Source of the DNA: Terriglobia bacterium
GTDB lineage: Bacteria > Acidobacteriota > Terriglobia > 20CM-2-55-15
Length of the DNA: 64,000 nucleotides
Assembly: GCA_965198225.1 (NCBI GenBank)
Contig: CBDAOY010000006.1
Location: 608,001-672,000 of the forward strand
Direction: 5' to 3'
The notes below the pieces were generated by a model, which saw only the letters and a list, made by a program, of their open reading frames with translations, was not told the origin of the DNA and searched no databases. Of this stretch, positions 9,569 to 37,803 are shown piece by piece; positions within the stretch are counted from its first letter, which is position 1, and every line of letters starts with the position of its first letter. Made by a program: the position numbers and the translations under genes.

Positions 9569-9737
9569 GCGGCTCCTTCTCGTGTCGATCGGTCGCTCGG
9601 AAGAGGGGCTTGTCGACGAGATGCACTTTTCCGTATCGTCGACTTGAACGAAGCCGCTGGCGCGGCGGACGCTACGCGTGTGCTGAGCGAAGAGTGATGA
9701 GCCCCCGATAGAGTGTGAGCCTCACAAGGAGGCTCAC

Positions 9738-10628
9738 ATGACGAAGCTGCGACAACGGATGCTGGAGGAACTCCAGCGCCGGAACTACTCACCCGCTACG
9801 ATTCGGCTGTATCTTCACGCGGTCGAAGACTTCGCCCGCTACTTCGGGAAGTCCCCCGACAAGCTCGAACAGGAACAGATGCGGCAGTACCAGCTGCATC
9901 TGCTTCAGGAGCGCAAGCTCGCTGTCGACACCATCATCGGACGGATCGCCGCACTCCGGTTCTTCTACGTGAAGGTGCTTCGCCGTCCCTATCACCAGGT
10001 CGATCTGGTCTATCCGAAACAGCCGTCCCGGTTGCCCACGATTCTGAGCGAAGAGGAAGTGGCGCAACTGCTGGCCTCCGCCAACAGTGCCTATCACTTC
10101 GTCATCCTGATGACCTTGTATTCGACGGGACTGCGGCGGGCCGAGCTGTGTCGTCTGAAGGTCGAGGACGTCGATAGCGAACGCATGGTGATCCATGTGA
10201 GGCAGGGTAAAGGCAATCGCGACCGCGACGTGCCGCTGTCACCGAAACTGCTGGAAGTCCTGCGCGACTACTGGCGTTGGCGGAAACCCGGCGAGTACCT
10301 CTTCCCCAGTTTGCTCCGGACCCGGCCCGGACAGCCCATCGATGTGAAGACGGTTTGGTACGCCGTCCAACAAGCCGCCCAACGTGCCGGCATCAAAAAG
10401 AAAGTATCCCCACATACGCTGCGCCACAGCTGGGCCACCCACCTGCTGGAGAGGGGAACCGACCTGCGAACCATCCAGCTCCTGTTGGGTCATGTCGATC
10501 TGGAAGCGACGACCCTCTATCTCCATTTGTCTCAGGCGCACATGCAGCGCGTGGTGAACCCGATCGATTCTCTTCCGGTTCCCGATCTGGGACCGTCTCC
10601 CCGTCTGAGAAAGAAGAAAGGCGAATGA
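9738..10628 (+). CDS. Tyrosine recombinase/integrase
   Basis: YSTGLRRAE, GKGNRDR, HTLRH, LLGH and catalytic Y in TTLY. Integron-integrase-like N-terminal domain. Confidence 0.95.
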   Translation: MTKLRQRMLEELQRRNYSPATIRLYLHAVEDFARYFGKSPDKLEQEQMRQYQLHLLQERKLAVDTIIGRIAALRFFYVKVLRRPYHQVDLVYPKQPSRLPTILSEEEVAQLLASANSAYHFVILMTLYSTGLRRAELCRLKVEDVDSERMVIHVRQGKGNRDRDVPLSPKLLEVLRDYWRWRKPGEYLFPSLLRTRPGQPIDVKTVWYAVQQAAQRAGIKKKVSPHTLRHSWATHLLERGTDLRTIQLLLGHVDLEATTLYLHLSQAHMQRVVNPIDSLPVPDLGPSPRLRKKKGE

Positions 10629-11794
10629 GCCGGCCCGCCGTCGAGGTGGCCGACATCGTCCGCGCCCGGGTTCGAGGTTTCCTCCAGCGTCACCGCCTCG
10701 GCATCCAGAAGCTCAAGGTCCTGCGCGCCATCCTGAACTGTCGTACTGCGGCTCTGGGTGGCCACATCGACCGGTGTGCCGATTGTGGCCGGGAGTCCGG
10801 AATCTCGTTCAACTCCTGCCGCAACCGCCACTGCCCGAAGTGTCAGACCCAGGCCCGACGACGGTGGCTCGAAGCACGAGAAGCCGAACTGCTGCCCACC
10901 CCCTACTTCCACGTCGTGTTCACCGTCCCGCACCAGTTCCATCCGTTCTTCTTCCACAACCCTGCCCTACTCTACAGCCTGCTGTTTCGCAGCGTGGCCG
11001 ACACGATGATCGAGGTGGCGGCCAATCCGAAACGACTCGGCGCCCGGATCGGCTTCTTCGGCATCCTGCATACCTGGAGTCAGAACCTGGAGTTCCATCC
11101 CCACATCCACTGCGTGGTACCGGCCGGCGGACTGGCTCCGGATCAGTCCCGTTGGATTCCGGGTTCTGGGCGCTTCTTCCTCCCCAAGCAGGTGCTCGCC
11201 CGAGTCTTCCGTGGCAAGTTCATCGACGGGCTCGGGCGAGCGATCGCCGACGGTTCGCTCGAACTGTCCGGCTCGATTCGACCCTTCGGCGAACCGCAAC
11301 ACTTTCGGCGGTTCCGCCGCCAGATCCATTCCCGCAACTGGGTCGTCTATATCAAACGACCCTTTGGTGGCCCCGAACAGGTGCTCCGCTACCTGGGCCG
11401 CTACACCCATCGGGTCGCCATCTCCAACCATCGATTGATCTCGTTTGACGGTAACCGGGTCCGGTTCCGTTGGCGGGATTACCGCAATGGCAACAAGAGT
11501 CGCATCATGACACTCGCGGCCGACGAGTTCATCCGACGGTTCTTATTGCACGTTCTGCCGAAGGGCTTCGTCCGCATCCGACACTTCGGATTCATGGCCA
11601 ACTACCGCCGGTCGGCCGCCTTCGCTCTCTGTCGCCAACTCCTCGATGCCATGCCGAGGGTCGAATCTGACGAAACCACCACCTCGAACTCTTCCTGGTC
11701 GTGTCCGCACTGTCAGGGACCGATGACTCTCATCCAACGCTTCACCGCTCTGCAACTCGTAGCGAGGCTCGCCTTCCAATGCGATACGTCCTAA
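10625..11794 (+). CDS. IS91-family (Y2 HUH) transposase with Zn-binding domain
   Basis: NSCRNRHCPKC Zn motif, HPHIH HUH motif, YLGRY, RIRHFG, C-terminal CPHC. Confidence 0.93.
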   Translation: MSRPAVEVADIVRARVRGFLQRHRLGIQKLKVLRAILNCRTAALGGHIDRCADCGRESGISFNSCRNRHCPKCQTQARRRWLEAREAELLPTPYFHVVFTVPHQFHPFFFHNPALLYSLLFRSVADTMIEVAANPKRLGARIGFFGILHTWSQNLEFHPHIHCVVPAGGLAPDQSRWIPGSGRFFLPKQVLARVFRGKFIDGLGRAIADGSLELSGSIRPFGEPQHFRRFRRQIHSRNWVVYIKRPFGGPEQVLRYLGRYTHRVAISNHRLISFDGNRVRFRWRDYRNGNKSRIMTLAADEFIRRFLLHVLPKGFVRIRHFGFMANYRRSAAFALCRQLLDAMPRVESDETTTSNSSWSCPHCQGPMTLIQRFTALQLVARLAFQCDTS

Positions 11795-12216
11795 TCCTCC
11801 TTCACAAACCGACGACCGACGTGCGGTTCAGCCACGTCCTCGCCGGAGTGTGCCTCCGCTGCAAAATCCCCTCAGATCCCGTCCTTTCAACCCACCGATT
11901 CCCCGACCCAACTGCTTTCCGATTCACACCATCGACGCGGTCATCGACCGCCGGTCCCCCTCCTCGCCCCAACGCCACTCCAGATCCGGCCCGCTTCCGG
12001 CTACTTTCTCCATAGCCCACCGCGTCCGCCGCATTCGGCCAGCGCCCTCCTTCAAGTCTTGTTATCGAAACTGCCGCGGTGGGAACTTCTCGCTCATCCT
12101 GTGGCCGCGCTCGCCGCGGCACTTCCGATGAACGCTAACGACTATACGCCCGAGTGACTGCCTGCATGCCGGCCAAGCCGGCTCCAGCCGCTTGTTATCC
12201 GCCGTCCTCCGTACCG

Positions 12217-12759: not shown

Positions 12760-12838
12760 ACGGAGTGCAAGTGTATCGCTCTACGTTTCAATCCTGAGAG
12801 GAATCGGGCGAGAGCCGGCGCGATGTACTCTTGCAGGA

Positions 12839-12879
12839 ATCCTCATCTCCGTGAAGGCGATCTACACGTCCATGTGGAT
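12839..12879. repeat. Junction palindromic site (41 bp)
   Basis: ATCCTC-ATCTC-CGTGAAGGCGATCTACACG-TCCAT-GTGGAT. Confidence 0.75.
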
Positions 12880-13047
12880 TGAACACTCCGGCGAACTGAG
12901 ATGTCTGGTGGGGTGAGAAGGCTCGCACAGCGAGGGCCAGGGCCTTCGCACCTCAGCCCGATCGTGACTGCGGTCGGCCGTGGTGTTCATTGTCGAAACG
13001 AAAGATAGGATGATTCGGGTGTTTCGACACGTACTATTGTTGAGAAC

Positions 13048-19787: not shown

Positions 19788-20069
19788 ACAGAGGCAAGAG
19801 GCGCCCAAACAGGATTAGTAGCTTGCGCTACGGAGTCCAGCATACAGGCCAGAACGCAGGAGCTGCAAGAAGACGATCCACGGCCATATCTTCCTCCCGC
19901 CAAATGACAAAGAGGTATTTCACTGGCAATCATGTCTTGATGGACGGGTGCGACCGGCTCGAACTCAAGAGTCGTCGACAGAGCCGAACGTGCTGGCGAG
20001 GTGTTCCTCGACCGCGAAGCCAGCAGCGGACGGAAGAGCACAAGCGGCCTGAAAGGCCACATCGTCGAT

Positions 20070-20109
20070 ACCGGTAACGGAGTATCGGCGACCATACGGA
20101 CAAGTGAAA
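20070..20109. repeat. Junction palindromic site (40 bp, left hexamer degenerate)
   Basis: ACCGGT-AACGG-AGTATCGGCGACCATACG-GACAA-GTGAAA. Confidence 0.65.
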
Positions 20110-20317
20110 TAGCTAAACGCTGCGTAGGAAGAGTCGGCGACGGTCTTCGCGGGATTGGCTGGTGACCGGTCGTTACCAGGGACGTGCTCCGAGCCGCTAC
20201 GCCAGACGATGTGGCACAGCAAGCTGCTCGAATCGCCGATCGGAGCGCAAGTTGCCGACACCGGGATCAACCTTGAGACCGACTTACGTGGCGTCAGAAG
20301 TCGCCCACAAGGGCTAG

Positions 20318-21854
20318 GAGTCTGCGCGGCAGAGCGCAAAGAACTCGGACTGATTGGGATTTGAGAGGGTCTTCGGAGGAGAATCGACCGATTCTTCCGA
20401 TACGACGAGTTCAGAGTTGTACGGACACCCGTAATTGGCCGTGTATCGGGTCTGCCGGGTTGCGGTTTTCCGGATTATGCCCATTCGATCTTCCCGTTCA
20501 TCCGTCGTAAGTTCACCGCCAGAGTGACCAGATTCCACTCCCCGGTCACTTTGTCCAAACCGCGTAGACTGAACTGTCGGAATCCGAGCACCGACTTGAT
20601 CCACCCGAAGGGCGGCTCACCAATGTGCTTTCGGGCCCGGTAGCGGTCACGCCCACGCTTGGTTTTCATCTTTCTCATCATCCGACCAACAGCGGTGTCT
20701 TTGGGTGGGAGTGGGGCACGGGCGAGATCCTTCTCGCGACCCATCGCAACATACCCGTCAATCTGACGTTGTTCCAACATCCCCAGATTTGACTCGGATC
20801 GATATCCCGCATCGGCCAGCACGCGGTCGGGACGCTCCCCCAGATTGTCGCTCAACGCATCCAGCGTGGGTTCCAACTGCCCCACATCCGATGCATTGTC
20901 AGTCACCGTTGTTGCCACGATGATCCGGGCCTGGGAATCCACCACCGCTTGCGCGTTGTAGCATTGCTGGAACCCTTCGGTGGAGGTCTTCATCATCCGG
21001 CTTTCCGGGTCGGTGAAGTTGTCCTGGGCCGTGGGTTTAGGTTCCCCCATGGGACGTTTGAATGGCTTCTTTCCGCATCCGGGTTTGTGATCTTTGGTGT
21101 TCCGTCCCGCTTCCTTGTCCGCGGCCATCTGACGTTCTTCGAGCCGCTTCATGGCCGCCTGTATCGTGGCCAGGCGCTTCTTGCGCGTGGCCAACCCGTC
21201 GGGCAGTTCGTCTCCGCGCCGGTCCTTGCCGTATCGCTCGTCTTCGTCCTCATCGGTCGCCTCGGCCCGGTTCAACAGATCCCGAATCTGTTCACCCAAT
21301 TCGGTCTCCTGCTTTTTCATGCGTTCGTAGCTCATCGCTTTGCGTTTGCTTGCATTCGCCCGCATCTTGGTCCCGTCCACCGCCACGGTTCCCATCTTCA
21401 CCAGTCCCGCTTCCCGCGCCATCATCACCACTTGCACAAACAGGTTTCCGAACTCCTCAAGATGCAGTTTGCGAAAATCCGAGATCGTTCGGTGCGCCGG
21501 AAAGTTCTCCGCTCCCAACATCCGGAACGCTACGTCGTCGGTCAACTTCGCCGCGATCTTCCTGGACGAGAACACTCCGGTCGCGTACCCATAAATCAGC
21601 ACCTTCACCATCATCCGCGGATCAAACGCCTGATTGCCCGGACCCTCGGTTCCATACCGCTGTTCGAACGCGCTCAAATCCATCGCGTCCACCGCGTCCG
21701 ATATGAAGTACGACAGGTGATCTTCGGCCAACCAATCTCTCAACGACGGTGGCATCAGCAGTGTTTGTTCTGGGCTATAAGTTCGATAGGTTCGTGCCAT
21801 GACATATCTTCGATCTTTATCCGCCCAATTCCGGTCCTTCTGCCGCGCAGACTC
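20318..21854 (-). mobile_element. IS1182-family insertion sequence
   Basis: Perfect 16-bp terminal IR GAGTCTGCGCGGCAGA. CTAG target duplication at 20314-20317 and 21855-21858. Confidence 0.92.
20475..21800 (-). CDS. IS1182-family DDE transposase
   Basis: 'AVDGTK', 'NFTDPESR', 'LADAGY', 'EPPFGWIK' motifs. Confidence 0.95.
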   Translation of the reverse strand: MARTYRTYSPEQTLLMPPSLRDWLAEDHLSYFISDAVDAMDLSAFEQRYGTEGPGNQAFDPRMMVKVLIYGYATGVFSSRKIAAKLTDDVAFRMLGAENFPAHRTISDFRKLHLEEFGNLFVQVVMMAREAGLVKMGTVAVDGTKMRANASKRKAMSYERMKKQETELGEQIRDLLNRAEATDEDEDERYGKDRRGDELPDGLATRKKRLATIQAAMKRLEERQMAADKEAGRNTKDHKPGCGKKPFKRPMGEPKPTAQDNFTDPESRMMKTSTEGFQQCYNAQAVVDSQARIIVATTVTDNASDVGQLEPTLDALSDNLGERPDRVLADAGYRSESNLGMLEQRQIDGYVAMGREKDLARAPLPPKDTAVGRMMRKMKTKRGRDRYRARKHIGEPPFGWIKSVLGFRQFSLRGLDKVTGEWNLVTLAVNLRRMNGKIEWA

Positions 21855-23185: not shown

Positions 23186-23346
23186 AGTGCGGTCCCGGGG
23201 GGCTTGACCACCACCGGTTCGGAAGAGATGCTCTGTGCTCATGGCGTCAGTGGAGATGGGCGGGCCCACGACCGTGGAAACCCAATTGGCACACCGCCGG
23301 CACGACAAGTCGAACCCCCTTTCAAAAACGGAGGCTCTCAACCACG

Positions 23347-23383
23347 ATCCACGTTATCGTATAGGCATTACAGTCATGTGGAT
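23347..23383. repeat. Junction palindromic site (37 bp)
   Basis: ATCCAC-GTTAT-CGTATAGGCATTACA-GTCAT-GTGGAT. Confidence 0.75.
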
Positions 23384-23740
23384 TGTCGCGGGCTCGGTTT
23401 CTGCTAGCTATGTTAACGCGCGGACCATCGGCATCGAATCGACTTGCGGGAAAAACCATCAGAAATCGTTAGGCCGTCCGGCGTGAGGTCGTAGTCCCTG
23501 TATTGATTGAGTAGGATGAACCCTTTCAAAGTAACACCGTGTTAATCTACCAACGGACAGAGTCCGTTCCTTCCAGAAGATCCGTCGTTTGCAATCCCGC
23601 CCCGGCCGGTCTATCCTCAAAATGATCTTTTTCTGAAAGGGTCTCTTTTTTCTACGATTCTTTCCTCGACTGTCTTTCACGTCACCCATTCTCGTGACCG
23701 TCGACCGTCAAGAATAAGAATCCCCGATTCAGGATCTCTT

Positions 23741-24660: not shown

Positions 24661-24785
24661 CGGTAACGATCGGTCGCCTTGTGTTTAGGAACGCTCGATT
24701 GACCTGCCGCTGACCAGCCTGCACGTGTTACTGCCTAGCTAGTGTGACATCTGGATGGCCCTGTATTCATGGGGTCTTCGTGAGA

Positions 24786-24825
24786 ATCCACTTTTCCGTG
24801 TCGCCGACTTTACGGCAAGTCGGGG
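24786..24825. repeat. Junction palindromic site closest to the E1 target
   Basis: ATCCACTTTTCCGTGTCGCCGACTT matches the E1 left flank ATGCACTTTTCCGTATCGTCGACTT at 22/25 positions. It continues TACG. Confidence 0.8.
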
Positions 24826-24848
24826 GCAGAAGGCTCGAACACAGGTCC

Positions 24849-24905
24849 CTAAGGCACTGGCACACGTTCCTTGAGTTCTTCGAACCAGTTCAGAACAACT
24901 GTGAT
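24849..24905 (-). pseudogene. Isolated C-terminus of a kinase-TolB family protein
   Basis: ITVVLNWFEELKERVPVP*. Confidence 0.7.
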
Positions 24906-24989
24906 CGGGATCGAACCGGTTTCGGCGGCCGGTCGGCTACTCGTAGATGTGCATGGGCGCTAACAAGAAAAGTGTCCACTGCATTGACC

Positions 24990-25142
24990 TCAAGCCCCTT
25001 GCCTCGTACTCTTCTTCTCCGGATTTGCTCGTGCGGTTCGTTCCTGCAGTGCTTTTCGAACTTCCCGGATACGTTCTCTCATCCGAAGTTTTGCCTTGCG
25101 CAGACGGTTGAAGCGCGCCTTGTCACCATTTCTTGCGGACAT
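24990..25142 (-). CDS. 50-aa highly basic microprotein (absent from ORF track)
   Basis: GAGG RBS. MSARNGDKARFNRLRKAKLRMRERIREVRKALQERTARANPEKKSTRQGA. Confidence 0.65.
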   Translation of the reverse strand: MSARNGDKARFNRLRKAKLRMRERIREVRKALQERTARANPEKKSTRQGA

Positions 25143-25260
25143 CTGTCACCTCACATAATTCAGCATTCAGATTCTAGTCATTTGTGAACGAATAGAAAGT
25201 GTCCTCTTGCTAACGGAACGACAAAGGCCACTGGATGAACATTCAGACCCCCGGCTTTCC

Positions 25261-25296
25261 CGACGAGATCCACAAGGAAGTATCGGCGACATATCA
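25261..25296. repeat. Junction palindromic site, left half
   Basis: CGACGAG-ATCCAC-AAGGA-AGTATCGGCGAC, compared with the E1 left flank CGACGAG-ATGCAC-TTTTC-CGTATCGTCGAC. Confidence 0.75.
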
Positions 25297-25625
25297 GGAA
25301 TTAGCGGGAGTCAGTCGTTCGGTGCGCGTACTTGCGACGATTGATTCGACGAAACTAACGAATACAGGTTCGAGTAGGACTCTCGCGTTCGGGCTGTTGT
25401 TCCATGAGTACCAAACAGACGGAATCGGATAAAACTTAGCGATGAGGTGCTTGAGCTCCTCAAGGCCAGACGGTTTGTGTGACGTTGGCGCGTCAAGCAA
25501 GGTTTTCGCCTTCGCGGGGCGGGGGGTCACTCTTGCGGAGCAGACCCGAGCGCCGACAGCTACACTAAAACATTGTCACGCTCGGCCAACGTTATTGTAT
25601 TCTCTGTCCGGACTAATCGGAGGGA

Positions 25626-31873: not shown

Positions 31874-31950
31874 TCGCTGTGAGGTGAGCTTCAGAGGGGC
31901 GAGTTCCCCTTCCGCGATCGGCTGTCCGCCAAGCGGGGCTTCCGGACACA

Positions 31951-31990
31951 ACCCACTCTGGTTGTATGGCGGCTCCACGTCCATGTGGAT
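31951..31990. repeat. Junction palindromic site (40 bp)
   Basis: ACCCAC-TCTGG-TTGTATGGCGGCTCCACG-TCCAT-GTGGAT. Confidence 0.75.
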
Positions 31991-32018
31991 GCTGTAGGTT
32001 GCCGCTGGAACGCCGAAC

Positions 32019-33675: not shown

Positions 33676-33916
33676 AGCAATCAGAGAGTCACCCGGTCGT
33701 CATAGCGCCATGCCGATAAGCAGGAAGCCCGTTATCAAAGGGGCTTTCGACAGAAGACAGTTTGCAGCATAGGCGACTTCTCGGAAGTTGAGAACAGATC
33801 GTTTATTGGGCGTTGAGAATTTGATAGCGCTTAACTCACTCCTCTAGTATCTTTTGCCGAGTTTTTCACGGCTTTTTCAGCAACACAATATAACGATGGA
33901 ATCCGGCACAAAACTC

Positions 33917-35005: not shown

Positions 35006-35571
35006 TTTTCCGGGTCAAGTCCTGATAAATCATCTTGTCGGACATTGACCACCAGGCCGTAACGGCTACCCGTAGAAGGCCCCGTAGCAAAGGACGACAG
35101 ATTACCCGCCATAAGTCGCCTAGCGTTTAGGAATGAGCAGCATCAATGACCAAAAAACTGGCTTACGGTTTCGAACGCAAGATCTAGGATAAGTACTATT
35201 AGGAGAGTAACTTGAGGTCAATGAAAAGGTCAGATGCTCGTAATACGCCATGTTTCTATCGGAGATGGTCCGGGACCGACAGTGGCAGGAATGATCCGGG
35301 GCATGTCGGATAGAACGGTTTGAAGTGAGGCGCAGGCGCGGTCGGGAGGGAAAGCCCTATGGGTTTTCAATCGAGGGGCCGGGGGGATATACAAGCAGCC
35401 GACTCGATGTTGGGACATGGAGTGGGCCGAACTTTGCGTTGCGCTGCCCGGTTCTGAGGTTTCCGAAGCATTCGGACCGGACTCGAAAGGCCCAGTTGAC
35501 AGATCCCAGACACACTGGCGCGGTGCAGTCCAGCGGGCCGCGAAGTGGACGTGGTTGTGGAGCATTGACGG

Positions 35572-36756
35572 TTAGGTACTGTCGAGAATCGGGACCGGCC
35601 TGGATGTGATGAACCCGAGTTGGAGCGCGGTGAAGCGTTCGACGATGCGCATGGTTCCGTGACAGAGCGGACACGGTTCCGGCGGAGTGTTTGGGGGCGG
35701 AGAGTCCGGCTCCGACGTGGGTGTCTGGCCGAGGAGTCGCCGACACAGCCCGAGCATCACGGCGCGTTTCCGATTGGCCATCCATCCGAAGTAACGGATG
35801 CGGGGAAAGCCTTTCGGCAAGACGTGGTGTAGGAACCGCCGGAGGAACTCCTCCGGGGCCAGTGTCATCGTGCGGGGTCGTCCGTTGTGGCGGTAGTCCT
35901 TCCATCGGAATGTGACGCCGTCGGAGGTGACGCTGATGATGCGATGGTTAGAGATCGCCACCCGGTGCGTGTAGCGGGCCAGGTACTGGAGCACGTGTTC
36001 GGCACCGCCGAAGGGCGGCTTGGCATAGACGACCCAGTCCCGGTCTTTGAGGTCATCGATGAACTGCTGGAAGCGGGATGGGTCGGCCAGTTGCAGGCAT
36101 TCGCCGTGGAAGGCGAGCGTCTTGTTATCGAACGCCTCAGCCAACCCATCGAGGAACTTCACTCGGAAGACGGCACTGAGTTTCCGGACCGGAAGCAGGA
36201 AGTCGGACCGCGACGGATGGACCCACCGGTCGTGATCCGGTGAGGGTCCGCCACCGGGAACGACGCAATGGATATGGGGATGCCGTTCCAGGGTCTGTCC
36301 CCAGGTGTGCAGGATGCTGAGGAAGCCGGCTTCGGCACCCAGATACTTCCGTTGAGCCGCGACCTGGATCAAGGCGGCGGCACTGGCGTGAAACAGGAGC
36401 CGGTAGAGGACGCGCTTGTTCTGCCAGATGAGTGGGACCAACTGATGCGGCAGGCTAAAGACCAGATGGTAGTAACCGACCGGCAACAGTTCCTGCTGCC
36501 GTTTCTCGACCCAGGTGTTTCGGGCCTGGGTCTGACACTTCGGACAGTGGCGATTCCGGCAGGAATGGTATAGAAGTGTGTCGTGGCCACATCGTTCGCA
36601 TCGTTTCCGGTGACCGCCTAATGCTTGGGTCCGACAACGGGTAATCGCATTCAGGACTTTGACCTGGGGCCAGGTCAGCGCCCGCCGATACCGGTTTCGG
36701 AATCGGTCTCCTGCGATGCGAACGACCTGGGCCACCTCAAAGCGTGGCCGGCTCAT
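35572..36756 (-). CDS. IS91-family HUH transposase
   Basis: SCRNRHCPKC, HPHIH, YLARY, RIRYFG, CPLC. Confidence 0.93.
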   Translation of the reverse strand: MSRPRFEVAQVVRIAGDRFRNRYRRALTWPQVKVLNAITRCRTQALGGHRKRCERCGHDTLLYHSCRNRHCPKCQTQARNTWVEKRQQELLPVGYYHLVFSLPHQLVPLIWQNKRVLYRLLFHASAAALIQVAAQRKYLGAEAGFLSILHTWGQTLERHPHIHCVVPGGGPSPDHDRWVHPSRSDFLLPVRKLSAVFRVKFLDGLAEAFDNKTLAFHGECLQLADPSRFQQFIDDLKDRDWVVYAKPPFGGAEHVLQYLARYTHRVAISNHRIISVTSDGVTFRWKDYRHNGRPRTMTLAPEEFLRRFLHHVLPKGFPRIRYFGWMANRKRAVMLGLCRRLLGQTPTSEPDSPPPNTPPEPCPLCHGTMRIVERFTALQLGFITSRPVPILDST

Positions 36757-37630
36757 CGCTTTGTCTCCTCAACAACGGCAGGCAGGTGCAACTGATCCAG
36801 GGGGTTGCGTGCCATCTCCAGGTGACGGCGAGACAGCTGGAGATACAGCGTGGTATCGGACAACCGGCTGTGTCCCATCAAGAGCTGGATCGTGCGCAGG
36901 TCGGTCCCCGACTCAGCAGATGCGTACCGAAGCAGTGGCGCAGCGTATGGGGACCGACTTTCTGCTCAAGACCGGCCCGTTCCGACGCCCGACGGACCGC
37001 ATACCAGACGACCTTGTCCGAGATCGGCCGTTTCACACCCCGGTGTCGGGCACTGCTGGGAAACAGATACCCCGCCGGCCGTTTCAACAACCAGTATTGC
37101 CGCAGGGCTTCCAGCAAGCTCGGGCTCAACGGCACATCTCGGTCCCGACGACCTTTGCCCTGGCGGATATGCACCAGCATCCGCTCACTGTCGATATCGG
37201 TGACCTTCAACGTCGATGCTTCTGTGCGCCGCGCTCCGGTTCCGTAGAGCACCATCAGGATCGCCCGGTGCATCGGTGTCACTGCCGACTGGATCAACTG
37301 CCCGACTTCATCGGGGCTTAGGATCGTCGGTAGTTTCCGGGCCGTCTTGGGAAACGGCAGGTCATCGATCCCCAGATCGGCTCGACGCAGCACCTTCTTG
37401 TAGAGGAATCGCAAGGCGGAGATCCGCGCCTCCACCGTGTTCGGGGCCAGCTTCTGCTTCCGCAGCATGTGCAGCTGGAACCGTCGCAGTTCTTCGGCTC
37501 CCGCATCGGCGGGAGACTTGCCGCAGTATTGGCGGAACTGGTCGAACGTGATCAGGTAGCTGCGAATCGTTCCAGGCGCGTAGTTGCGTCGCCGGAGCTC
37601 GTCCAGCAGTCGTTTTCGTAGTGGGGTCAT
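36753..37630 (-). pseudogene. Tyrosine recombinase, frameshifted at ~36914
   Basis: Adding one G after HTLRHCFGTHLL restores ESGTDLRTIQLLMGH...TTLY and the ATGA overlap with the transposase. Confidence 0.88.
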
Positions 37631-37764
37631 AAGCCACCTCCTTATGACCGCCACTGTATGGGATGGGATCTATCTACAGGACGCCGACTCCGAGCGCCTG
37701 CGGCTTAGTTCTAACCGCCGATACGGAAACCTGGAAACCGGCTGAAATGGGGCTTCAGGCCGCG

Positions 37765-37803
37765 AGCCACTTTGGAGTATCGGCGACTTGTCAAGAGCTG
37801 GAA
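37765..37803. repeat. Junction palindromic site (39 bp)
   Basis: AGCCAC-TTTGG-AGTATCGGCGACTTGTCA-AGAG-CTGGAA. Confidence 0.65.

Follow-up and report, generated by a model that had tools for sequence, protein, structure and literature searches.

An IS91-family element with an accompanying tyrosine recombinase is targeted to the centre of an imperfect palindrome in a Terriglobia genome

We analysed a 64,000-nucleotide stretch of DNA (hereafter the window) from a Terriglobia bacterium, namely positions 608,001 to 672,000 of contig CBDAOY010000006.1 (C6:608001-672000 of the genome designated G000, 6.4 Mb on nine contigs). The window contained an insertion element of about 2.5 kb, E1 (9640-12143), which encoded a tyrosine recombinase and an IS91-family Y2 transposase. 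In all copies within this genome, E1 was inserted in one orientation and at a single bond, CGAC^T (the caret marking the bond), at the centre of an imperfect palindrome. Targeting of the palindrome centre by E1 is established by the comparison of its copies, while the enzyme that makes the join is a matter of graded alternatives that are weighed below.

A BLAST search of the whole genome with window positions 9621-12159 returned eight copies of E1 with both ends and two copies truncated at the 5' end, at 98.7-100% identity. Every left junction (8/8) and every right junction (10/10) sat in a diverged member of one imperfect-palindrome family, a clustering far beyond chance. Outside E1, the left flanks consisted of an ATCCAC box, a short variable stretch and then GTATAGG or a variant of it, and the right flanks of a TATACGG-type sequence, a variable stretch and then GTGGAT. 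These flanks, though related, differed from copy to copy, whereas the E1 interiors were near identical, and unoccupied sites of the family carried a single CGAC at their centre. It had been proposed from the window alone that the palindromes were the target of E1 and that the join lay within the central CGAC(T), and these three observations bore that proposal out. The flanks given in the original prediction (9621-9644 and 12139-12159, with CGACT at 9640-9644 and 12139-12143) were found as described, and joining them over one CGACT yielded an 18-nt core with one mismatched pair, in agreement with the near-perfect palindrome that had been claimed. The reported likeness to the unoccupied site at 24786 was reproduced as well, at 22 of 25 positions (9621-9645 against 24786-24810), the 25th position, 9645, belonging to E1. 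When the flanks of the other copies were collected and aligned, all of them fell in the palindrome family and none was unrelated. Because the junction fell in the same central column as the centres of the unoccupied sites, the palindrome halves represented target sequence. Thus, E1 appeared to have spread recently into an older, diverged repeat family. The features of the occupied site were as follows.

9604..9643, + strand: left half of the target palindrome, ending in CGAC at 9640-9643 (nhmmer hit C6:617604-617645); it aligned with the left halves of unoccupied sites
9644..12142, + strand: E1, starting T-TGAAC and ending ...GAACGCTAA-CGAC
9653..9666, + strand: left subterminal hairpin (DNA fold), with a 5-bp stem and a TGGC loop, just inside a GAAC
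9738..10628, + strand: tyrosine recombinase, 296 aa, Xer-like (Pfam PF00589, 5.6e-44, and PF13495, N-terminal SAM-like domain)
10625..11794, + strand: IS91-family Y2 HUH transposase, 389 aa (Pfam PF04986, 9.3e-63, and PF14319, zinc-binding domain, 7.2e-31)
12064..12129, + strand: larger imperfect subterminal palindrome at the right end (DNA fold of the last 90 nt)
12139..12142, + strand: right-hand CGAC, constant and most likely element-borne (10/10 right ends in G000, 11/11 in relatives)
12143..12162, + strand: right half of the target palindrome, aligning with the right halves of unoccupied sites

Homology between the copies in G000 spanned 9640 to 12143, so that on these copies alone the boundary of E1 was ambiguous by 4 nt and 9640-12138 was equally compatible. 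An 85%-identical relative aligned with E1 from end to end (positions 1-2504). The mobile unit reached past internal GAAC motifs, 2 nt further on the left and 13 nt on the right, and an end-to-end junction of E1 would bring together direct GAAC repeats and not inverted arms. The recombinase passed the XerA-type model NF040815 of NCBIfam marginally (223 bits, cut-off 220), and stayed below the cut-offs of the XerC and XerD models (199 and 193). Against the integron-integrase model TIGR02249 it scored 202.9 bits (cut-off 265), in two pieces that skipped model positions 177-237. Its translation was open and contained catalytic-type motifs, which we take to be those of an active tyrosine recombinase, and its stop codon overlapped the start codon of the transposase (ATGA). 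The transposase scored 432.6 bits against NF033538 of NCBIfam (cut-off 125), and its open translation contained the stretches H-P-H-I-H and Y-L-G-R-Y, presumably the HUH motif and the two catalytic tyrosines. E1 is predicted from these features to be a member of the IS91 family that is active or was so until recently. One of its copies (C6:342075-346378) was split behind base 69 by an insert of about 4.3 kb, the start of which was 99% identical to C9:459952. GC skew around the copies was weak and inconsistent and gave no clear sign of a lagging-strand bias: in three islands it was negative with E1 on the plus strand or positive with E1 on the minus strand, and in one island the relation was the opposite.

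The palindrome was about 45 bp long and imperfect, with outer boxes ATCCAC/GTGGAT and inner boxes GTATAG/CTATAC, the latter inverted around an asymmetric centre (G-CGA) of 4-6 nt. A profile built from eight reconstructed E1 target sites gave about 49 non-overlapping nhmmer matches at E<=1 in 6.4 Mb, and this profile, being derived from the flanks of E1 itself, was biased towards E1-like target sites. The genome as a whole contained 15,536 CGACT and 113,127 CGAC sites, and if CGACT alone had sufficed for insertion, about 0.3% of the candidate sites would have fallen in the family. Apart from one weak match on contig C8, the family was confined to five islands on four of the nine contigs (C4, 26-68 kb; C6, 295-342 kb and 583-646 kb, with one further site at 737 kb; C7, 939-946 kb; C9, 763-820 kb). 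Within each island the sites were co-oriented, as judged by the asymmetric centre. They were often located 36-146 bp past a gene end, and the genes between them, found on both strands, encoded peptidases, amidohydrolases, a permease, an ABC-type permease and a beta-lactamase-fold protein. We aligned 21 unoccupied sites spanning the centre together with the eight reconstructed ones; 18 of the 21 carried CGAC or a one-base variant (CGAT, CGCC or CGGC) at the junction column and the remaining three were gapped. No match to the palindromes was obtained with Rfam at gathering thresholds over the whole window. A second CGAC was often present about 25 nt upstream of the central one, in a conserved GGGGCTTTCCCGACGAG module (e.g., 9606-9620), and a CCTGAAA...GGGG motif often lay still further upstream; with these additions the repeat unit was larger than the palindrome and asymmetric. 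Besides the site occupied by E1, the family profile located the following members in the window.

12833..12886, + strand: unoccupied member, with a CGAT centre on the + strand
20055..20113, + strand: unoccupied member
23331..23389, + strand: unoccupied member
24770..24821, + strand: unoccupied member, the left cassette border (the site at 24786 named above)
25251..25304, + strand: unoccupied member, the right cassette border; E1 occupied the same border in the other two cassette copies
31934..31995, + strand: unoccupied member
33740..33789, + strand: unoccupied member
37748..37793, + strand: member adjoining a second element, E2 (described below), on the opposite strand relative to E2

The meaning of the repeated CGACT became clearer from the sister lineages of E1. 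In G000, the left CGACT was invariant, and the base after the right CGAC was T, C or A, as in unoccupied sites. In copies of the 85%-identical element from related genomes, the left 4-mer was CGAC six times, AGAC once and GGAC once, while the right one was CGAC in 11/11; an obvious family half-site was present on the left in at least five of eight cases and the right-flank consensus equalled the right half. Lineage b, sampled in genome G002 (20 loci, 99.7-99.9% identical, with 18 unique non-tandem junctions), had a constant right end, GCGT, and a left flank of GCGT, CCGT, ACGT, GGGT, CTGT, GTGT or CCGC, giving the target logo C 13/18, G 16/18, T 17/18 ^ T 16/18, T 15/18. The palindrome was absent at all 18 unique junctions of this lineage, and its recombinase was intact (298 aa). 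Lineage c, sampled in genome G015 (18 copies), ended constantly in ATGT on the right. Moreover, the flanking 4-mers could differ within one sister-lineage copy (e.g., CCGT on the left and GCGT on the right). Since one 4-mer travelled with the element and a similar one was chosen in the target, the CGACT repeat was not a target duplication. The left CGAC was most likely derived from the target and the right CGAC would be the element's own, with the T after the left CGAC as the first base of the element.

This arrangement followed the published rule of the IS91 family: the target is not duplicated, one end adjoins a target tetranucleotide and the other carries a cleavage tetranucleotide, and in IS801 and IS1294 the two are identical (PMC13181058). 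As a control we used four copies of an IS91-family element in enterobacterial plasmids, which had GAAC upstream in 4/4, GAAC downstream in two and CAAG downstream in two, and no duplication. The left end of E1 was laid out like the left (terIS) end of this control, with GAAC followed by a hairpin with a TGGC loop. Thus, the view that E1 was inserted as IS91 is, beside a tetranucleotide and without duplication, fitted both the literature and the control. The further suggestion that CGACT was the crossover core of the tyrosine recombinase fared less well, since the pattern was that of the IS91 4-mer rule and lineage b, with an intact recombinase, was inserted at CGT^TT without any palindrome; what may stand of it is a role for the recombinase as such, as cassette borders were cut at the same bond. 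In addition, the two bases before the left CGAC were GG in 6/8 and GT in 2/8 and those before the right CGAC were AA in 10/10, and this lack of mixing argued against a 6-8-bp staggered exchange with random segregation.

Two kinds of sequence beside the junctions deserve separate mention. At two loci of G002 (L010 and L016), a duplicate of about 15 nt of the right end (T-A-GAACGCTAG-CGAC) directly followed an intact E1-like copy; it looked like a tandem copy in which all sequence from the GAAC of one end to the GAAC of the other had been deleted, and no such right-end remnant was present in G000. Eight of the 18 lineage-c copies (L091, L094, L096-L098, L100, L102 and L103, all in G015) were located directly 3' of a member of another repeat family, whose units measured about 50 nt and formed an inverted repeat (CGCCAAGGGT...ACCCTTCGGCG).

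Within 12118-12142, the 10-mer adjoining the conserved GAACGCTAA on its inner side resembled a left half-site and showed partial complementarity to the right flank. The right-flank consensus of lineage c, TTATCGGGAGTAAT, fitted the complement of the right subterminal 10-mer at 8 of 12 positions. Some right junctions folded into a good hairpin (-14.5 kcal/mol in L009). Over four groups of 10, 11, 19 and 18 mutually related flanks, the best match of the right subterminal 12-mer to the right flank averaged 6.2-6.8 of 12 positions; shuffled flanks averaged 5.8. The signal for pairing between the right end and the flank was therefore statistically slight, and we treat it as a weak lead.

The palindromes also bordered segments other than E1. 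A cassette-like segment of 482 bp (24809..25290, + strand) occurred in three genome copies that were 96-98% identical, and in 3/3 copies its homology opened right after the CGAC of one palindrome and closed with the CGAC of the next. The open reading frame at 24744-25187 had no Pfam family. In the C9 copy, the left half-site of the cassette matched the half-site to the right of the neighbouring E1, a pattern that would arise had the cassette been inserted into an intact site before E1 occupied the right-hand site so created. Among 45 family sites examined, at least 12 had homology to other loci that started or stopped within 4 nt of CGAC^, with different partners on each side, and one more pair of homologous loci opened at a degenerate site. 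As a counter-example, homology between C6:295175 and C9:778635 continued 11 nt past the centre. The segments bordered by palindromes reached about 7 kb and had genes on both strands. Comparison of these borders indicates that the palindromes act as recombination sites bordering movable segments, with the same exchange bond as that used by E1. The cassette copies differed by 2-3.5%, while the adjacent E1 copies were 100% identical, so that cassette movement predated the E1 burst and the two were separate events. For the same reason we rejected one-ended transposition as a recent source of the cassette copies.

The site model was also searched across 30 related genomes. With a sequence-only model of the palindrome (E<=0.01), 13 of them contained matches, including 39 in G000, 31 in G015, 30 in G003, 20 in G012 and 15 in G002, and the transposase (E<=1e-20) was present in 10 of the same 30. 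The two distributions overlapped without coinciding: G003 had 30 sites and a single element, with an intact recombinase and a split transposase, while G029 had 11 transposase matches and no site match. The recombinase was found in four of five further genomes, its strong matches (42-70% identity) adjoining the transposase wherever coordinates were compared (G003, G012 and G029); weaker matches of the recombinase family (33-37%) were located elsewhere.

We propose that it is probably the HUH transposase that joins E1 to its target and that the palindrome adds recognition beyond the 4-mer. The transposase was favoured because lineage b junctions lacked the palindrome despite an intact recombinase and because the outer bases never mixed; lineage b also implied that the recombinase was not needed to explain the junctions in this subgroup. 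The transposase would cut single-stranded DNA 3' of a target 4-mer matching the 4-mer at E1's own end, a cut that has a precedent in what is described for IS91, IS801 and IS1294. The palindrome could act by one of several routes, namely a transient hairpin that would place the 4-mer at its tip, pairing with the right subterminal 10-mer of E1, or a recombinase bound to the palindrome arms. The recombinase would then be an accessory, or provide a second activity, and would not be the enzyme that sets the junction.

Several observations weighed against this proposal. There were no compensatory changes in the palindrome (18 pairs, 22 sequences): pairing was present in 58.6% of the cells, compared with 61.1% for the shuffles, and the observed value was reached in 476 of 500 shuffles. 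A palindrome without covariation is more readily understood as a site bound by protein on double-stranded DNA than as a hairpin under selection; the folding energies of single sites were weak as well, from -2.5 to -10.1 kcal/mol. The variable, target-derived 4-mer was located upstream of the genes here (lineages b and c), whereas IS91 and the control have it downstream, next to oriIS. Read literally, this would make the polarity a mirror image of that in IS91: at both ends the cut 3' of the 4-mer would fall on the gene-sense strand, while in IS91 it is the bottom strand that is transferred (PMC13181058). The palindrome centre was also a breakpoint of segments other than E1, for which a site-specific recombinase would be a simpler explanation than a transposase recognising E1's own ends. 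The recombinase kept catalytic-type motifs and still accompanied the transposase in relatives as distant as 42% identity, suggesting that it was under selection for some catalytic role. Finally, neither a circle junction, as expected from the single-stranded circular intermediate of the IS91 family, nor an empty allele was found in contigs from public runs, a source that drops rare variants: contigs of X3, X5 and X8 bridged one or both E1 junctions, and no join of 9639 to 12144 and no junction of right end to left end was present, so that activity and intermediates are predicted ones. One X3 contig continued past 9638 into sequence that was absent from the window.

The first alternative, possible although we consider it unlikely, is that E1 enters the palindrome as a circle, integrated by the Xer-like recombinase at that enzyme's own recombination site, and that the same enzyme shuffles the cassettes. 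This would need an exchange limited to one strand pair, where the GGCGAC spacer ends on the right, after which replication would complete the process; the transposase would supply a single-stranded circle. Integron integrases and XerC exchange one strand pair on single-stranded substrates, and one-strand exchange by an Xer-like or integron-like enzyme would also give a sharp junction. The cassette data point in this direction: the 482-bp segment was bounded exactly at CGAC^ in its three copies, the C9 half-sites matched as described, and the homology breaks at the 12 or more sites fell within 4 nt of the same bond. So do the arms, which were conserved by sequence and not by covariation, and the co-orientation of sites within each island. 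The recombinase itself was intact, Xer-like and translationally coupled to the transposase, G003 of the same genus kept an intact recombinase beside its broken transposase together with 30 palindrome matches, and the right subterminal 10-mer of E1 was like a left half-site. On the other hand, lineage b with its intact recombinase made 18 unique insertions at a 5-nt motif without the palindrome, and in G000 the identity between the element junction and the target was only 4-5 bp. The element junction would also present direct GAAC repeats instead of inverted arms, the end architecture and the 4-mer rule were those of IS91, and the divergence of the cassettes beside identical E1 copies indicated that cassette movement was older.

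Under a broader version, which we rate as quite unlikely, the palindromes would be recombination sites of a so far unrecognised cassette system, akin to integrons and dif modules, whose recombinase is borne by IS91-type elements. In this case, the transposase would peel off single-stranded circles, and the recombinase would insert them, and the cassettes in trans, by one-strand exchange at the centre.

A reading of the palindromes as attC-type sites, belonging either to an integron or to an attC cluster that has no integrase, is very improbable; E1 would then be an attC-targeting insertion sequence (IS) comparable to IS1111-attC elements and group IIC-attC introns. G000 did contain an integron-integrase gene (C6:488798-489706, - strand; TIGR02249 446.5 bits, cut-off 265), and the sites shared with attC two paired boxes with a variable spacer, positions that were often 36-146 bp past gene ends and co-oriented clusters. 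However, the integrase match contained a TGA, the 11 kb beside the gene had no inverted-repeat array, and the nearest family site was more than 90 kb away. Moreover, the cassette breakpoint was central and not in the outer box, the AAC...GTT outer boxes were missing, and a crude regular-expression scan for attC gave six candidates genome-wide, none near the integrase.

The last possibility, raised in the original prediction, was that E1 truly ends in the palindrome halves, in which case the empty sites would be excision footprints; although each element did lie between inverted half-sites and the two loci of the relative did carry the 15-nt right-end duplicate beside an intact copy, we rejected it because the half-sites differed strongly between copies with identical interiors, because the halves ran on into cassette homology and not into E1, because G003 had 30 palindrome matches and one broken element, and because G000 had no solo end-footprints (the last 13 nt of E1, with one substitution allowed, gave 22 matches, that is, the 10 element ends and 12 one-mismatch chance matches).

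A diverged relative, E2, of about 65% nucleotide identity, was located further along the window.

35115..37713, - strand: E2; on its left a palindrome-type half-site and CGGT, on its right CGAC and a half-site-like flank
35572-36756, - strand: E2 transposase, intact, within E2
36878-37654, - strand: E2 recombinase open reading frame, truncated, 258 aa, stopping at position 230 of the 263-position XerA-type model

The E2 recombinase probably lacks the catalytic tyrosine, judging from this truncation. Elements of the E2 type occurred in G012, which belongs to another genus, at half-sites with a CGGT centre, and one of them had about 90 nt of its left flank in common with the E2 of the window.

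At the locus orthologous to that of E1, genomes G002 and G003 (same genus) and G012 carried the upstream peptidase gene at 94-95% identity. G002 and G003 kept both flanking genes, with unrelated intergenic sequences of 136 or 440 bp that contained neither the palindrome nor E1, while G012 had a different IS91-type element there. The original prediction had named an empty allele lacking the 40-bp site as evidence against targeting. Taken literally, G002 and G003 offered such alleles, but these were different species with non-homologous intergenic sequence and not true empty alleles, and because unoccupied paralogous sites existed, the orthologous loci did not bear on targeting. Rather, this comparison shows that the palindrome unit itself comes and goes between genomes. 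The orthologous intergenic region of G003 (L041 2870-3150) contained a roughly 300-bp insert whose inverted ends measured about 25 nt; it was absent from G002 and looked like a miniature transposable element.

ISfinder lists IS91-family members with an upstream tyrosine recombinase, ISWz1 among them. The same pair of recombinase and IS91 genes, in the same order, was annotated in RefSeq on Rhizobium and Bradyrhizobium plasmids, with a transposase 51% identical to that of E1 and a left end that had the same TGAACGAAGCCGC motif followed by a hairpin. Unlike E1, the three Rhizobium copies examined were outside the palindrome family, and their right ends were unlike that of E1. At four loci on such Rhizobium and Bradyrhizobium plasmids (L048, L050, L051 and L052), another transposase gene was located about 50-100 bp past the right end, of the IS5 family in three of the four. 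Literature searches returned no published target rule and no recombinase role for the recombinase-carrying IS91 subgroup, and no paper on an IS91-family element that targets palindromes or is dedicated to a palindrome centre. Nor did they yield any description of a recombinase-carrying IS91-type element dedicated to a palindrome that also borders cassettes.

With IS91, IS801 and IS1294, E1 had in common the transposase family, the absence of duplication, an end 4-mer resembling the target 4-mer, and a subterminal hairpin beside GAAC at the gene-upstream end. In IS91, the stop codon of the upstream orf121 overlaps the transposase start (PMC13181058), and E1 had the same overlap, but its upstream reading frame was a tyrosine recombinase. 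The 4-mers differed, being CGAC in E1 and CGGT, GCGT and ATGT in its sisters, and GAAC/CAAG on the gene-sense strand in the IS91 family. Furthermore, E1 was unlike the family in the palindrome of about 45 bp needed around the 4-mer, in a unit that extended 2 nt and 13 nt past the internal GAAC motifs, and in a target 4-mer located upstream of the genes.

Other insertion sequences offer parallels for the choice of site. ISPpu9 of the IS110 family in repetitive extragenic palindromes (REPs), IS1111-attC elements, IS1202-family elements at pdif/dif and REP-associated insertion sequences are inserted in a specific orientation at a fixed position of a repeated palindromic or recombination site (PMC12288879, PMC10132070, PMC1525189, PMC11187229). 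These use DEDD or DDE transposases, whereas E1 uses a Y2 HUH enzyme. In PMC1525189, IS91 appears only as one of seven copies near a REP, in one Shigella genome. The system of REPs and their transposases (REP/RAYT, TnpA-REP) likewise combines a repeated extragenic palindrome with an HUH-type enzyme (PMC3333891, PMC8266576); it differs in having a single domesticated Y1 gene and genome-wide palindromes, against a multi-copy Y2 transposase and palindromes in a few islands here.

For the cassettes, the nearest likeness was to two recombination systems. The dif modules of Acinetobacter are movable segments between short near-palindromic Xer-type sites (pdif XerC/XerD), with exchange inside the site. 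Xer-type sites have two inverted arms of about 11 bp around a spacer of 6-8 bp, and in the palindromes the inverted inner boxes enclosed the asymmetric centre of 4-6 nt; in contrast, the sites described here were about 45 bp long, with bipartite arms, co-oriented, chromosomal and grouped in islands of 40-60 kb, and the candidate recombinase was encoded by an insertion sequence, its action being predicted. Integron attC sites are co-oriented imperfect palindromes with a part-site at each cassette end and two boxes with a spacer, as here, and integron crossover takes place in the outer (R') box, which leaves nearly the entire site at the 3' end of the cassette, but the breakpoint in our case was central, the E1 recombinase was without the integron-specific segment, and the cassettes reached about 7 kb with genes on both strands.

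Two further repeated sequences were noted. A DDE transposase gene (PF01609; window 20475-21800, - strand) was located about 200 bp from the palindrome at 20055, and 87-94 nt at its end (20310-20400) recurred in at least 14 other places of the genome at 98-100% identity, suggesting another multi-copy insertion sequence. An unlike palindromic repeat pair, with arms of 26 nt that were 92% complementary, recurred in G000 and G012 (L047 9284-9381 and L040), and probably represented a REP-like family with no relation to the E1 target.

The current view is that IS91-family elements pick their targets by a tetranucleotide alone. Here, one lineage was wholly dedicated to a palindrome centre and its sister lineages with the same gene pair used a short motif, which provides a natural comparison for the target specificity of HUH enzymes. 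At the same time, segment borders at the same bond and co-oriented arrays in several Terriglobia soil genomes point to cassette shuffling outside the integron and dif-module paradigms. If the palindromes were indeed the sites of a cassette system served by the IS91-borne recombinase, E1 would combine rolling-circle transposition with site-specific recombination in one mobile element served by two enzymes.

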